Positions 1,342 to 7,623 of a DNA stretch of 10,961 bases are shown here, one piece after another. Both the position numbers and the translations under genes were made by a program. The stretch is from a virus. Numbering within the stretch: position 1 is the first letter of the stretch; each line of letters begins with the position of its first letter. Under the pieces are notes generated by a model that had not been told where the DNA came from, did not search any database, and worked only from the letters and a program-made list of their open reading frames with translations. The stretch lies in the UHGV virus genome UHGV-1794807; one strand, written 5' to 3'.

Positions 1342-1348
1342 TTCTTGC

Positions 1349-2392
1349 TTAAAGAATACTTGCCAGATACTTAAGTTGTCTTTGATATCGAGTAACCGAC
1401 TGGTTAACTTGTAACCTTTTCCCTTCACTTACTGTATGGAAGCGACCAACTTTTAGCTGTGATATTGGTATGCTTTCAGCCCCACTAATTTGCCCGCTTG
1501 ATACAAAATCATCTGTAACCACAATTGCTTTGCTAACATCTTCATCGGCAAAGAGATGACTGTATTTTTCAGCGATTTTTACAGCTCTCTCTATGTACAT
1601 TTGAGATGCGCGACCTGGTGTTGATGATTTACGGCTTTTTGAACCAGCCATTGTCATTACGATCGCTGCTACTTTTGGAGCCCCAAGCCCACCCGCACGC
1701 TCATTCCATAATACAAAATCTTTTGATTTATTTGCCAGCATTTCCATTGTGAGATGAAGTGACTCAATTGAGTGTTCATCTACGCGTACAGGGATAATCA
1801 ATGCCTCAGACGCGCACCATGCTAGGTGTGTTCCTCCAGCATAGAAGGGGCTTGTATCCATCAATAAAATTTCGCATTTTTTGTCTTTCGCTTCATCGTT
1901 CATTATTGCGCGAAGAGAATTTAATAGTGTTGATACTGCTTTTGGTTCTCCGCGAGATAGCGCTACTTGTAGTTGTTGATACATGCTTGATGGGAAAGCG
2001 AATAGCTCAGGATCACCTGGAATCGCATAACATGCCTTACCACCTTTAAAATCTGGGCAGAAATTACTTACTCGATATGAAATATCTTCTGGCTGCTCAC
2101 CAAAAGCTGGACCCAGCATTTTTGGTGTCAGTGCATTAGCTATTGTTACAACCGGTTTTTCACCACGCAATAGTGTCTCCGTTAAATTACATTGCGGGCA
2201 TAAGTCAGCCACTAATACGGAGTTACGTCGTGACAGCTCATAGGCGAGGTTGAATGTCATCGTGGACTTACCAACACCACCGCGCAGATTGGAAACTGCA
2301 TAACTTTTGAATTTTGGCCCGCCATCTACGACGTAACCTTCCTCAACAACTTGTGCATAGCGTGCCATTACTGACTCAACTACAGTGCTCAT
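1349..2392 (-). CDS. ParA/MinD-family (SIMIBI-class) P-loop ATPase, 347 aa, in the position of lambda rexA-rexB
   Basis: Deviant Walker A RGGVGKST (consensus KGGxGK[ST], first K replaced by R), ParA-like A' motif VLVADLCPQCN (compare ParA LIDLDPQGN), Walker B-like ILLMDTSP. Strong SD AAGGAGG 7 nt upstream of ATG. Flanked by terminators on both sides. Confidence 0.8.
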   Translation of the reverse strand: MSTVVESVMARYAQVVEEGYVVDGGPKFKSYAVSNLRGGVGKSTMTFNLAYELSRRNSVLVADLCPQCNLTETLLRGEKPVVTIANALTPKMLGPAFGEQPEDISYRVSNFCPDFKGGKACYAIPGDPELFAFPSSMYQQLQVALSRGEPKAVSTLLNSLRAIMNDEAKDKKCEILLMDTSPFYAGGTHLAWCASEALIIPVRVDEHSIESLHLTMEMLANKSKDFVLWNERAGGLGAPKVAAIVMTMAGSKSRKSSTPGRASQMYIERAVKIAEKYSHLFADEDVSKAIVVTDDFVSSGQISGAESIPISQLKVGRFHTVSEGKRLQVNQSVTRYQRQLKYLASIL

Positions 2393-2418
2393 ATGAATTC
2401 CTCCTTTAAATTTTGAAT

Positions 2419-2447
2419 ATTAAAGCACCACAATGATGCAGGAGCAA
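2419..2447 (-). promoter_or_regulatory. Candidate sigma70 promoter for the ATPase gene (TTGCTC-N17-TTTAAT)
   Basis: Minus-strand TTGCTC (plus 2442-2447), 17-nt spacer, TTTAAT (plus 2419-2424), about 27 nt upstream of the ATG. The -35 overlaps the first 19-bp repeat. Read by eye, not scored. Confidence 0.4.
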
Positions 2448-2520
2448 TAAAAAAGTGCAGGAGAATGTAAAATTAGCAGGTGAATTAAAAATGCGCAGGA
2501 GATGTGATGTTTTGCAGGTT
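2438..2520. repeat. Five tandem direct repeats, exact 19-bp period, conserved core GCAGGWG plus A/T-rich spacer
   Basis: GCAGG starts at 2438, 2457, 2476, 2495 and 2514. Units: GCAGGAGcaataaaaaagt, GCAGGAGaatgtaaaatta, GCAGGTGaattaaaaatgc, GCAGGAGatgtgatgtttt, GCAGGTTgactg. Lies 46-128 bp upstream of the ATPase start codon. Confidence 0.85.
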
Positions 2521-2616
2521 GACTGAACAAATGCTGATGTATACCTCGTTTGTAGATAGGTATGTTAATTGCTATATAACATGCTTATGTTATTGATATT
2601 TATATATATTAATCAT

Positions 2617-2643
2617 AAAAAAAGGCCGCACTTCTGTGCGACC
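2617..2643 (-). terminator. Intrinsic terminator immediately downstream of cI
   Basis: 8-bp stem GGUCGCAC/GUGCGGCC (one G-U pair), 4-nt loop, then a run of 7 U on the minus strand (plus A-run 2617-2623); starts 5 nt after the cI stop. Confidence 0.65.
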
Positions 2644-2648
2644 TTTCA

Positions 2649-3365
<717 letters not shown>

Positions 3366-3372
3366 TTAAATC

Positions 3373-3438
3373 TATCACCGCAAGGGATAAACTTCTAACA
3401 CCGTGCGTGTTGACTATTTTACCTCTAGCGGTGATAAT
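3373..3438. promoter_or_regulatory. OR3-OR2-OR1 operators with pR (rightward) and overlapping pRM (leftward)
   Basis: OR3 TATCACCGCAAGGGATA (3373-3389), OR2 TAACACCGTGCGTGTTG (3396-3412), OR1 TACCTCTAGCGGTGATA (3420-3436). pR -35 TTGACT (3410-3415) and -10 GATAAT (3433-3438). cro SD TAAGGAGGT at 3451-3459. Confidence 0.9.
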
Positions 3439-3462
3439 GATTACCTGTACTAAGGAGGTTGT

Positions 3463-3663
3463 ATGGAACAACGCATAACCCTGAAAGATTATGCAATACG
3501 CTTTGGGCAAACCAAGACGGCTAAAGATCTCGGCGTATATCAAAGCGCGATTAACAAGGCCATTCATGCAGGCCGAAAGATTTTTTTAACTATAAACGCT
3601 GATGGAAGCGTTTATGCGGAAGAAATAAAGCCCTTCCCAAGTAACAAAAAAACAGCTGCATAA
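3463..3663 (+). CDS. cro: Cro repressor (lambda-type)
   Basis: 66 aa [41 protein letters not shown]..., near-identical to lambda Cro as recalled. Strong SD; first gene on the pR transcript. Confidence 0.95.
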
Positions 3664-3701
3664 GTAACACCGTTCTTTTCACAATGGACATTCGTCCTAC
3701 G

Positions 3702-4276: not shown

Positions 4277-5168
4277 CATATCTAATCTAGCCGAAGCCAG
4301 AGAGGCCAGAAGGCTACAACAACCGCATCAAAGCAGCGGTAAGGGGTATGCCTTGCTGCACCGTAAAATTATGGATGTGCCGTTTTACAAGGACGCAGAA
4401 GCAGCGCATCTGTGGGTTCACTTAATCCTCAAAGCAAAGCATACGCCTGAGTATGTAATGACTGACGCAGGAGAAATTCTGGTAGGCAGAGGGAAGCTAC
4501 TTGGCGGTAGAAACTCTCTGGCGTTTGAAACAGGACTCAAACCAGATCGCGTTCAGTACCTGCTTAGAAAGTTCAAAAAACTCGGCATGATTGACTGGGT
4601 TTCACACGGTAAATTCTCAGTTTTCTCGGTAGAGAAATATGACGATTATCAGTCAAATTTTGTACCAGCAGATTACCAGCAAATTACCACCTCAAAGCCA
4701 GCAATACCAATGCCTGCAAGCAATACTGTACCAGCAGATTACCAGCAAATTACCACAGATAAAGAATATAATAATATTATCTCTAATACTGACGTATTAG
4801 AGAGTGCCACAGCAGACAAAAAGTCTGACAAGAAAAAACCTTCCGTCAGCTGTCAGGATGTTGTCGATGCTTACCACGAAATCCTTCCTGAAGCGCCAAG
4901 AATCCGCGCACTGAATGACAAGCGTAAAAACCAGATCCGAACGTTCTGGCGCAAAGCCGGAGTGATAACCCGCCAGCTTGACGGGCATGGGTTCACGATG
5001 CAGGACTGGAGAAATTATTTGAGCTACGTAGGCGAAAATTGCCGATGGATGTTCGAAGAACGCCCAAACCATCAACGCGGAACCGTCTGGCACAAAAAGG
5101 GATTTGATTTCCTGCTTAACGACAATACCTACCTGAAAGTTCGTGAGGGTGAACACGATGACCGATAA
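4269..5168 (+). CDS. Replication initiator, lambda O-like / P22 gp18-like origin-binding protein
   Basis: 299 aa directly upstream of and overlapping the DnaB-type helicase gene. Contains an internal iteron array plus AT-rich tract as in lambda O/ori. SD AAGGAG 7 nt before ATG. No sequence identity to lambda O was recognised; call is by architecture. Confidence 0.6.
4662..4790. repeat. Candidate replication origin: two identical 29-bp repeats (four ACCAGCARATT iterons) followed by an AT-rich tract
   Basis: GTACCAGCAGATTACCAGCAAATTACCAC occurs identically at 4662-4690 and 4728-4756; each holds two ACCAGCA[G/A]ATT half-repeats. Followed by agataaagaatataataatattatctctaatact (4757-4790). Encodes the duplicated peptide [10 protein letters not shown]. 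Confidence 0.7.
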
Positions 5169-7623
5169 TTTTTATGCGCCGCCCCATAGCATCGAGGCAG
5201 AGCAGGCGGTGATTGGTGGATTGCTTCTGGATGATGACAGCAGTGAGCGCGTCCAGAAAGTTCTGGCGATGCTGAAGCCTGATTCATTTTACAGCCGACC
5301 ACACAAAATCCTTTTCGAAGAAATAACCAGAATGCACCGGGAGCAAAAGCCAGTAGATGGCCTGACGCTTTTCGATGAACTGGAGCGTAAATCGTTAACG
5401 GCGTCTGTTGGCGGTTTTGCTTATATCTCTGAGATCGCAAAGAACACGCCAAGCGCAGCAAACATCGTTGCCTATGCAATGCAGGTTCGTGAAACCGCAA
5501 TGGAACGCTACGCCATCAACCGCATGACTGAAGCGACGGAATTGCTCTATTCCCGCAACGGAATGACTGCAACGCAGAAGTACGAAGCTATTCAGGCGAT
5601 TTTCACGCAACTGACAGATCATGCAAAAACCGGATCGCGTCGCGGCCTTCGTTCATTTGGTGAGGTCATGGAAGACTGGGTTAGCGACCTTGAGAAGCGA
5701 TTTGACCCGTCAGGCGAACAACGAGGAATGAGCACAGGGATCCCATCGCTGGACAGGATGCTGTCACCGAAAGGTCTGGTGAAAGGCTCTCTGTTTGTCA
5801 TTGGCGCTCGCCCTAAGATGGGGAAAGCGCAACCGCTTAATTCACGCATTTTGCTTGCTGATGGTTCATGGACAACATTTCGTGACGTATGTGTTGGAGA
5901 TTCCCTAGCATCAGTGGATGGACAACCATCATTCGTGTCTGGAGTTTTTCCTCAAGGGGAGCGAGATATTTACCGAGTTACGTTCTCTGACGGAAGAACC
6001 GTTGATTGCGCGGATGATCATTTGTGGGAAATTCATAGTAACCGTATTACCGGTGGCGTTGATGTTGTAGACACCTGCCGCCTACGGGACATGATGGAAT
6101 GCGTTCGCTATCAAAGCCGCATTCATGTTCCTGGTATTAGCGGTGACTTCGGATTGCCTGTTGATTTAGGGATTAGCCCATGGCTGTTAGGTGCGTTACT
6201 TGGCGATGGAAATCTTGCAGGTACGCCACGAATCAGCATGACGGAACCATACATCATTGAGCGAGTAAGATCTGAAGTGGGTGACGATATTGAAGTCAGA
6301 CATGTTTCTGGCTGCGATTACTCCCTATCTCACAAGTTTAGCCGCAAATTATCTCTTACGCGGGTTATGCAACGGATTGGTATCTACGGCCGGATGTCAG
6401 AGATTAAAATTATCCCGGATATTATTTTTTCTGCTGATAAGCAAACTCGTATTGATGTTCTATGCGGATTACTTGAAACCGATGGTTGGGTTGAAGGAAA
6501 TAATGCCCTGCGCTTTAGCTCGGCAAGCAAGTTCCTGTCAGATGGTGTAAAGCGGCTGGTGCATTCTCTTGGTGGCGTGTGTCGTATGACAACCAAACAG
6601 GAGCCGAAATTCAGTTATAAGGGAGAAATGCGCAAAGGTATGGATGCCCATATTTGCGCAATCAGGTTGCCTGATGAGGTTCTATCACACATAAAATCTC
6701 CACGCCTGAAGCAAAAATTCACTGCAAAACGCATCAAAACAAGTGCGCCTGTTATCACGTCGGTTGAGTATATTGGACGTGAAGAGTGCATTTGCATCAT
6801 GGTATCCCACGAGAGACATTTGTATGCAACTGACGGATACATTCTAACCCACAACACCACGCTATACAGCCAGATGGCAATCAACTGCGCAGTGTATGAG
6901 AAAAAGCCCGCTCTGATATTCAGCCTTGAAATGCCAGGTGATCAGATACTGGAAAAACTGGTAGGGCAGAAGTCTGGTGTTAACCCGAATATTTTTTACC
7001 TTCCGGCGACAAATGACGCCGATGACGGCTATCAGGGTGATTACGATGGTGACTTCAACAGGGCGATCGAAACAGCCAATCGCTTGAGTGAAATCGACAT
7101 GCTTTACATCGACGACACGCCGGGATTATCTCTGGCTCAAATCGTCAGCGAAAGCCGTCGAATCAAGCGAGAAAAAGGATGTGTTGGCATGATTCTGGTC
7201 GATTACCTGACACTAATGACCGCTGAGAAGGCCGATCGCAACGACCTTGCTTACGGCATGATCACCAAAGGACTGAAGAACCTTGCCAAAGAGCTTGATT
7301 GCGTTGTTGTGCTTCTGACGCAGCTTAACCGCGCACTGGAAAGCCGAACCAATAAACGCCCATTACCAAGTGACTCGCGCGATACAGGGCAGATTGAACA
7401 GGATTGCGATTATTGGGTGGGGATCCATCGTGAAGGTGCTTTTGATGACAGTGTTCCACCTGGTGAAACCGAACTAATCCTTCGTCTCAATCGTCATGGC
7501 AATACCGGCACGGTGTATTGCATTCAGGCAAATGGCGCTATTTATGACACAGACCAACAGTCTGCTGAAATGCGCCGCCGTGAACGCGAGGAGCCGCAGT
7601 CCAAGAAGAAAGGAGGATTCTGA
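5158..7623 (+). CDS. DnaB-family replicative helicase precursor interrupted by an intein
   Basis: N-terminus PPHSIEAEQAVIGGLLLDD...FYSRPHKILFEEI...GGFAYISEIAKNTPSAANIVAYA closely parallels E. coli DnaB. Walker A GARPKMGK is split from TTLYSQ...PALIFSLEMP by 343 aa. C-terminal motifs LTQLNRALESR and DSRDTGQIEQDCD are present. ATG at 5158 chosen over the track GTG at 5143 (GAGGG 8 nt upstream). Confidence 0.9.
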   Translation: MTDNFYAPPHSIEAEQAVIGGLLLDDDSSERVQKVLAMLKPDSFYSRPHKILFEEITRMHREQKPVDGLTLFDELERKSLTASVGGFAYISEIAKNTPSAANIVAYAMQVRETAMERYAINRMTEATELLYSRNGMTATQKYEAIQAIFTQLTDHAKTGSRRGLRSFGEVMEDWVSDLEKRFDPSGEQRGMSTGIPSLDRMLSPKGLVKGSLFVIGARPKMGKAQPLNSRILLADGSWTTFRDVCVGDSLASVDGQPSFVSGVFPQGERDIYRVTFSDGRTVDCADDHLWEIHSNRITGGVDVVDTCRLRDMMECVRYQSRIHVPGISGDFGLPVDLGISPWLLGALLGDGNLAGTPRISMTEPYIIERVRSEVGDDIEVRHVSGCDYSLSHKFSRKLSLTRVMQRIGIYGRMSEIKIIPDIIFSADKQTRIDVLCGLLETDGWVEGNNALRFSSASKFLSDGVKRLVHSLGGVCRMTTKQEPKFSYKGEMRKGMDAHICAIRLPDEVLSHIKSPRLKQKFTAKRIKTSAPVITSVEYIGREECICIMVSHERHLYATDGYILTHNTTLYSQMAINCAVYEKKPALIFSLEMPGDQILEKLVGQKSGVNPNIFYLPATNDADDGYQGDYDGDFNRAIETANRLSEIDMLYIDDTPGLSLAQIVSESRRIKREKGCVGMILVDYLTLMTAEKADRNDLAYGMITKGLKNLAKELDCVVVLLTQLNRALESRTNKRPLPSDSRDTGQIEQDCDYWVGIHREGAFDDSVPPGETELILRLNRHGNTGTVYCIQANGAIYDTDQQSAEMRRREREEPQSKKKGGF
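5827..6855 (+). mobile_element. Intein with LAGLIDADG homing-endonuclease domain, inserted in the helicase P-loop between GK and TT
   Basis: Removing 5827-6855 restores GARPKMGK-TT (E. coli DnaB ARPSMGKTT). Block A-like start AQPLNSRILLADGSW, two LAGLIDADG motifs LLGALLGDGNLAG (about 6178-6220) and LCGLLETDGWVEGN (about 6460-6500), C-terminal ILTHN followed by +1 Thr. Confidence 0.75.

Follow-up and report, generated by a model that had tools for sequence, protein, structure and literature searches.

The five phased repeats found upstream of an ATPase gene in the window (the whole stretch of 10,961 nucleotides analysed here, from the virus genome UHGV-1794807) belong to a type of array which, judged from the loci compared, is a conserved hallmark of this ATPase gene family. 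The element is a variant of the operator/centromere arrays of partition systems, and we regard it as part of a putative ParB-less ParA-type cassette equipped with its own conserved recognition lattice. ParA-type ATPases are thought to bind DNA non-specifically and to receive their site specificity from a ParB-like adaptor. The cassette described here is compact and widely transferred; it occurs in more than eight phyla with about 60% protein identity, in the immunity regions of prophages and beside IS1-type transposases, and consists only of the ATPase and a strictly phased array with a predicted promoter built into it. No study of this ATPase family or of its array was found in the full-text literature searched.

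The array and its cassette in a lambda-immunity prophage

On the plus strand of the window five GCAGG cores follow one another with four spacings of exactly 19 bp each (Table 1); the ATPase gene that the array precedes is carried by the minus strand, on which the cores read CCTGC(A). The first-pass annotation had proposed that five cores at such an exact spacing are unlikely to arise by chance, and this is confirmed: three GCAGG at 19-bp spacing are matched three times in the window, always inside the array, and not once in 200 dinucleotide-preserving shuffles. Two other parts of its description hold only in part. The core GCAGGWG fits four of the five units (three GCAGGAG and one GCAGGTG, the order being AG, AG, TG, AG, TT), the fifth reading GCAGGTT, and the term 19-bp direct repeats is right for the phasing of the cores and not for the A/T-rich spacers. 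Because these spacers are only loosely alike (TRF reports a period of 19, 3.5 copies and 71% matches), the array is made of phased short cores rather than of true 19-bp repeats. Among five close E. coli copies the cores are invariant and all seven substitutions fall in spacers; across ten distinct enterobacterial orthologues, 24 of the 25 core columns are invariant versus 9 of the 56 spacer columns (Fisher p=3.5e-12). Whether the number of repeats varies among homologous prophages had been raised as a question, and it does, from 5 to 7 in close relatives. By-eye comparison of the window sequence with two other kinds of site, the lambda CII sites (TTGC-N6-TTGC) and DnaA boxes, gave no fit.

The window is part of a lambdoid prophage with lambda immunity, encoding cI, cro, cII, O and a DnaB-like helicase, with N and sieB to the left. 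Homology to lambda is limited to positions 1067-1346 and 2648-3677 of the window; it restarts 3 bp after the stop codon of the ATPase gene on one side and, for both lambda and mEp234, at 2648/2653 beyond the terminator on the other. The insert thus delimited sits between cI and the Timm/OL-PL region as an exact replacement of rexA-rexB, a slot that is occupied by hicAB or by unrelated genes in other lambda-immunity phages. Read along the minus strand, it comprises a terminator-like hairpin, an AT-rich stretch, the array, a promoter-like element, a Shine-Dalgarno sequence and the open reading frame, and has room for one gene. As a discrete insert in the rex slot, with its own terminator and a predicted promoter, it corresponds to what is called a prophage moron. 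Only 5 of 5,426 complete E. coli genomes carry it, one of them in a P22-like prophage located at the dsdC/torI site.

The hairpin forms the upstream end of the insert and should insulate the ATPase gene from read-through originating at PRM/PRE. With a terminator upstream, the ATPase gene needs its own promoter, for which the best candidate is a sigma70-type element at the downstream edge of the array. A stricter consensus scan of positions 2300-2700, which demands an A at the second position of the -10 hexamer, returned no canonical promoter, the TTTAAT of the window having none there; the promoter assignment is therefore a prediction, based on a PWM match and on conservation. Enterobacterial orthologues retain the block TTGmTCCTGC-N4-TTGTGGTGnTTwAAT, and the spacers around it drift. 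The earlier statement that the array begins at the -35 and extends some 80 bp upstream agrees with this placement, in which TTGCTC overlaps the proximal repeat, and the -10 of the window coincides exactly with the next position of the lattice. The AT-rich stretch of the E. coli copies is missing from the other enterobacterial orthologues, where the terminator abuts the array.

Two features of the replication genes of this phage may be mentioned in passing. The DnaB-like helicase encoded at positions 5143-7623 (plus strand) has 826 aa compared with about 478 aa (a 1,437-bp gene) in related prophages, and its middle part gives weak matches to Hint and LAGLIDADG; on account of the extra length and of these weak matches, it probably contains an intein. 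The O gene holds two short tandem arrays with a period of 11 bp (TACCAGCARAT, at 4663-4689 and 4729-4760 on the plus strand), possibly the origin repeats of this phage.

Table 1. Coordinates of the array, of the cassette and of related features (positions without a locus prefix refer to the window)
Feature	Location	Strand	Basis or remark
Five-core CCTGC(A) array	2438..2520	-	Spacers T-rich on gene strand; sequence, TRF and shuffles
GCAGG copies	2438-2442, 2457-2461, 2476-2480, 2495-2499, 2514-2518	+	
Lambda-type cI repressor	2649..3362	-	Upstream of cassette, same strand
Inserted cassette (moron), 1301 bp	1347..2647	-	Boundaries versus lambda at 1346/1347 and 2647/2648
Intrinsic-terminator-like hairpin	2620..2647	-	12-pair stem, T tail, directly after cI stop codon
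AT-rich spacer (about 100 bp), terminator to array	2521..2619	.	In E. coli copies
Predicted sigma70-type promoter	2419..2447	-	Best PWM match in upstream region, and conservation
Predicted promoter, -35 TTGCTC	2447..2442	-	Overlaps proximal repeat (2438-2442)
Predicted promoter, extended-10 TG	2427..2426	-	-10 TTTAAT at 2424..2419, spacer 17 bp
Shine-Dalgarno GGAGG	2400..2404	-	7 nt before the ATG; read from sequence
ParA/Soj-fold ATPase gene, 347 aa	1349..2392	-	ATG at 2392; Pfam, phrog, AF2, Foldseek
IS1-like transposase beside ATPase gene	About 2970-3860 in L014, L016, L017, L019-L021, L023, L025		
IS1-like transposase beside ATPase gene	About 2970-3860 in L027, L032, L037-L040, L044, L048		
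IS1-like transposase downstream of ATPase gene	L034, L059, L066		
Small convergent ORF	L019:5031-5285, L020:5038-5280, L021:5034-5414, L024:5038-5268	-	
Arrays without the gene (CCTGCA cores, 19/9 bp)	L127:2172-2233, L145:688-749, L159:11796-11857, L136:8962-9023		
Further arrays without the gene	About 70 more viral loci (L127-L246)		Among matches listed

A lattice that accompanies the ATPase gene across phyla

A search for the repeat unit in other genomes, as the first-pass annotation had suggested, was fruitful: in about 100 loci from more than eight phyla the gene is preceded by 4-11 CCTGC sites on its own strand. Fifty-six genomic loci, likewise covering more than eight phyla, contain 306 same-strand CCTGC sites within 200 nt upstream of the gene, which amounts to 5.5 per locus against 0.37 per control window taken from the same loci, and an independent set of 44 distinct prophage loci follows the same pattern with 4-11 sites each. 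When whole loci were scanned, clusters of CCTGC appeared only upstream of the gene, with the single exception of a Rahnella locus (L028) whose second cluster is an artefact, since it is the coding repeat of a pentapeptide-repeat protein.

The spacing of the sites is quantised. Neighbouring sites lie 19 bp apart in 140 and 165 cases and 9 bp apart in 71 and 49 cases (genomic and prophage loci, respectively), a spacing of 10 bp is found in neither set, and the 28-bp spacings are the sum of 19 and 9, split by a CCAGC variant site. The unit of the array is A-CCTGC-A followed by a 10-nt T-rich spacer, and tight pairs read CCTGCAyCA-CCTGCA. Because the allowed steps differ by one helical turn, they point to recognition of duplex DNA along one face, and this refines the earlier remark that proteins bound every 19 bp would spiral around the helix: with spacings of 9 or 19 bp, and never 10, they would follow one slowly drifting face. 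In 28 of 53 loci the best sigma70-like -35 (TTGnnC, with a 17-bp spacer) starts 4-5 nt before a CCTGC, which places one or two cores inside the core promoter of these loci; the geometry is not uniform, since several loci have their best predicted promoter upstream of the bulk of the repeats. One locus (L031:295-395) shows another arrangement, six GCAGG at 9-bp spacing lying directly upstream of four CCTGC, so that the two arrays are divergently oriented.

By its sequence and its modelled fold, the ATPase is assigned to the ParA/MinD superfamily (SIMIBI, deviant Walker A). It matches the Pfam families AAA_31 (50.6 bits, cut-off 27) and CbiA (38.4 bits, cut-off 25.4) as well as phrog_164 (1.8e-42), and its AF2 model (pLDDT 86) is matched by Foldseek to Soj, McdA, delta and the ParA of pNOB8 with E-values of 1e-10 to 1e-8. 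The Walker A motif is LRGGVGKS (L-R-G-G-V-G-K-S/T in the family): the signature lysine of the superfamily (KGGxGK[ST]) is replaced by an arginine, R37, found without exception in 25 homologues from many phyla. An N-terminal HTH is lacking, the ATPase domain beginning around residue 30 after a single helix (residues 4-18), and neither Pfam nor the AF2 model reveals a recognisable HTH or RHH domain elsewhere in the protein. The C-terminus bears a conserved flexible loop, DDFVSSGRISGA, and an extra basic beta-hairpin (about residues 318-332) with a helix behind it. The homologues, which are remarkably well conserved, measure about 346 aa and show 57-70% identity across Pseudomonadota, Actinomycetota, Verrucomicrobiota, Acidobacteriota, Planctomycetota, Bacteroidota, Myxococcota and Bacillota. 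Sequence searches of NCBIfam and PDB gave only generic ParA or P-loop matches, and PADLOC-DB 2.0 returned no defence-system match, only a 16-bit P-loop match to PDC-M28B.

As to their setting, the loci are either prophages in a chromosome or units resembling transposons. A cI-like repressor gene immediately precedes the ATPase gene, on the same strand, in 28 of about 46 prophage loci; in other loci the cassette adjoins integrases or attP. In 23 genomic loci from several phyla the ATPase gene is adjoined by the gene of an IS1-like DDE transposase, usually divergent, with the array filling the intergenic region of about 150 bp; three further loci (L026, L041, L071) have an IS1595-like transposase instead. 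No convincing terminal inverted repeats were found around the transposase/ATPase unit, which is therefore not demonstrable as a bounded transposon, and homology between related loci of this kind stops at the gene ends. One genome harbours a second, degraded copy of the unit (L071:3856-3925, to be compared with L041:3913-3973), in which two of the five CCTGC cores are mutated and both reading frames are broken, the flanks being nearly identical. Among 72,556 plasmids there is no member of the family, only an Aeromonas relative with 31% identity, and this distribution over prophages and transposon-like units argues against a role in plasmid partition. Among 50,697 isolated phages the gene occurs only in the Ralstonia phage RsoM1USA, where it is listed merely as a ParA family protein (PMC6389784). 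In this phage (L262:2052-2096, 2498-3544) the gene comes right after attP, at the prophage end, and five compressed cores with spacings of 9, 13, 6 and 9 are packed against a TATAAT.

No second gene is common to all loci and no ParB was found among the neighbours. In 16 loci a small convergent ORF of 76-126 aa lies directly downstream of the ATPase gene; it has no Pfam match and ends in a conserved C-terminal tail, GRKGGLKGGKARAxxLTPEQRxEIAKKAAxARW.

Candidate readers of the cores

With moderate confidence, we propose that the ATPase binds its own array cooperatively and represses its own promoter, the array perhaps being a loading site as well. The five repeats would then be the E. coli copy of a conserved cis-acting array within a mobile single-gene cassette, composed of a terminator, an array with an embedded promoter and a divergent ParA/Soj-like ATPase gene. 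The ATPase itself would bind the CCTGCA cores on duplex DNA, at neighbouring sites whose 9- or 19-bp steps differ by a turn of the helix and which follow a slowly drifting face. As the predicted -35 overlaps a core and the spacer or the -10 region contains the next lattice position, occupancy should shut off the promoter, and the outcome might be a host-independent, self-limiting expression in the lysogen. The array may double as a site of nucleation or loading for the function of the ATPase.

The array, its conservation, its lattice, its place exclusively in front of the gene within the loci, its overlap with promoter-like elements and the altered cores of a divergent protein clade (see below) are observed; we infer the ATPase as the binder, repression as the effect of binding and the C-terminal hairpin as the part that reads the bases. 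The ATPase as binder is supported by the composition of the cassette, which has one gene and no neighbour common to all loci. The lack of a recognisable HTH/RHH domain counts against it, as do the sites themselves: a canonical ParA dimer has two-fold symmetry and binds DNA without sequence specificity, and the sites here are direct repeats lying down to 9 bp apart, which is tight for a 38-kDa subunit. A divergent clade (L061, L062 and L074-L077), about 50% identical to the main family, offers a further clue. The 19-bp lattice and the T-rich spacers are retained in it, as is a TTGAC that overlaps the final core, but its cores read CC[AG]C[AG]C (CCCGCA, CCACAC), CCTGC being found 0-1 times per locus. 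The main clade has 103 positions with a conservation of 95% or more; 11 of them are changed in the divergent clade, five of these in the C-terminal hairpin (F318S, H319Y, Q328E, N330Y and S332A). This co-variation, a single event in one divergent lineage in which the clustering in the hairpin was noted post hoc, points to the ATPase, perhaps through its hairpin, as the reader of the cores.

The question arises as to why an operator would need so many sites. Four to eleven of them over 80-190 bp are more than a simple operator requires, and they resemble the parC/operator arrays of type Ib and type II partition loci; one may therefore consider that the array serves chiefly for loading or anchoring, as a centromere-like site similar to parS/parC, from which the ATPase would position, tether or silence DNA, promoter control being a by-product. 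Stand-alone arrays in other phages (see below) are also what would be expected of sites acted on in trans. We find this rather unlikely: the cassette resides in integrated prophages and transposon-like units, which need no partition, it has no ParB-like partner, the family is absent from plasmids apart from the distant Aeromonas relative, and the prophage that carries the cassette has no second array within 49 kb.

Arrays of the same design do exist apart from the gene. Searching viral contigs for exact occurrences of four CCTGC at 19-bp spacing yielded at least 120 matches; those listed comprise 26 perfect tandem repeats and 94 arrays with diverged spacers like the array of the window. Among the 94 so listed, 21 precede the ATPase gene and 73, forming about 18 sequence clusters, have no ATPase gene within 1.5 kb downstream. 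Within the same listed matches, 69 of the 73 orphan arrays are contained in an opposite-strand open frame of 100 codons or more. Orphan sites include the linker after an ACRAAMLQ motif in DUF551/Ea22-like early genes of enterobacterial prophages and the start of the o-spanin gene in Pseudomonas phages. A search with the orphan array of L127, aimed at its prevalence in E. coli, matched only part of the query. The control motif CGTCC gave 12 matches, 11 near-perfect tandem repeats and 1 diverged. Since a period of 19 nt cannot be that of a protein repeat, the orphan arrays are apparently kept at the DNA level, and either they have another binder or they are acted on in trans by the ATPase.

The first of these options can be extended to the cassette. 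The orphan arrays, which make up 73 of the 94 non-tandem matches listed, imply that some other protein could recognise the motif; a different phage or host protein encoded elsewhere might bind the cores, and the cassette would borrow its sites. The location of most orphan arrays in opposite-strand frames, the single diverged match of the control motif and the ATPase devoid of a classical DNA-reading domain are in line with such a binder. We nevertheless judge it doubtful, for the array accompanies the gene in all the phyla named above and we know of no DNA-binding protein of this specificity common to them, the divergent ATPase clade has cores of its own, and there is no neighbouring gene that every locus possesses.

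The second option is more speculative. A ParB-less, sequence-specific ATPase could recognise CCTGCA lattices wherever they occur, and the orphan arrays of other temperate phages would then be its targets in trans, which seems improbable to us at present. It would follow, with the same low probability, that a prophage gene in the rex slot acts on rival phages by exclusion, silencing or mislocalisation, and, no more probably, that these rivals must keep the DNA lattice for reasons of their own. The first-pass annotation had imagined the array as a decoy sensing an incoming phage protein; nothing supports this idea, although some action in trans is still conceivable in view of the like arrays found on other phages.

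An RNA-level element, either a CCUGC-repeat leader or an antisense GCAGGA-repeat sponge of the CsrA type, is very improbable. CAGGAG/CAGGUG repeats are reminiscent of CsrB, and the plus strand of the E. coli copy does present them about every 19 nt; in some loci, moreover, the best predicted promoter is upstream of the repeats. Outside the enterics, however, GCAGG/CCTGC is conserved and GGA is not, the quantised spacing of 9 and 19 nt, one helical turn apart, points to duplex DNA, and many host phyla lack CsrA. Neither strand of the array folds better than its shuffles (z-scores of +0.3 and +1.6), and Rfam gave no family at threshold (best score 25.7 bits versus 90), none of its matches meaningfully overlapping the array.

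An iteron-type replication origin or incompatibility element is hardly credible; the first-pass annotation had mentioned an iteron array for a DNA-binding regulator. The 19-bp period beside the 100-bp AT-rich stretch (2521-2619) does resemble a plasmid oriV, such as the iteron-carrying oriV regions of P1 and F, but no Rep gene is present and the AT-rich stretch lacks conservation elsewhere: orthologues have the terminator directly against the array, and in transposase-linked loci the coding region is only about 40 bp away. The phage moreover possesses an O gene of its own, with origin-like repeats at 4663-4760, and the plasmids searched contain no member of the family.

Comparison with known systems

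The place of the cassette recalls a well-known one. The slot downstream of cI is the classical location of exclusion and defence genes expressed in the lysogen, as exemplified by rexAB of lambda, and like rexAB the cassette occupies the position just downstream of cI. The two differ in that rexAB is co-transcribed with cI, whereas the cassette brings its own terminator and predicted promoter, and the ATPase has no sequence relation to the Rex proteins.

Another resemblance concerns the StbA/stbDR system of R388, in which the operon is preceded by two sets of five 9-bp direct repeats (TTGCATCAT) that overlap its promoter and serve both regulation and DNA positioning. The 9-mer found here, CCTGCAyCA, shares the TGCATCA stretch with the stbDR repeat. 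Unlike our cassette, R388 is a conjugative plasmid, its repeats have a period of 11 bp and StbA is a small protein of the HTH type; the likeness in sequence is probably coincidental.

The closest architectural parallel is given by the partition loci of types Ib and II. Their arrays consist of short direct repeats upstream of a Walker- or actin-type ATPase gene, flank or overlap its promoter, are cooperatively bound and combine operator and centromere in one element; the parC of R1 bound by ParR, the operator boxes of ParG in TP228 and the omega heptads of pSM19035 are examples. Here also, 4-11 phased short cores overlap the promoter of a gene for a ParA-fold ATPase. Types Ib and II, however, encode a small RHH adaptor (ParR, ParG or omega) downstream, none being present here, they reside on plasmids instead of integrated prophages or transposon-like units, and their lattice has a step of 7, 8 or 11 bp as opposed to 9/19 bp. 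With type Ia (ParA of P1, SopA of F), in which the ATPase represses its own promoter by binding a specific operator there, the cassette would share the autorepression that we propose. Type Ia ParA proteins, in contrast, possess an N-terminal HTH region of about 100 aa, recognise an inverted-repeat operator and work together with ParB and parS, whereas the cassette has one gene, no ParB, no HTH and direct repeats.

The likeness to ParA operators and centromeres put forward by the first-pass annotation is the best supported of its readings, in that the array is conserved with the gene across phyla, overlaps the predicted promoter and changes its core with the clade; as a comparison of systems it is an analogy only, given the missing ParB and HTH, the arginine in place of lysine, the direct repeats and the absence from plasmids. 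Because the HTH, the ParB or RHH partner, the plasmid location and the signature lysine are all lacking, the cassette belongs neither to type Ia nor to type Ib/II. If the ATPase reads the array itself, it would represent a new self-contained class of ParA system and a portable, host-independent module of autoregulated expression; the function of a common and unstudied prophage accessory gene would become directly testable, and so would its action on the orphan arrays of other phages.
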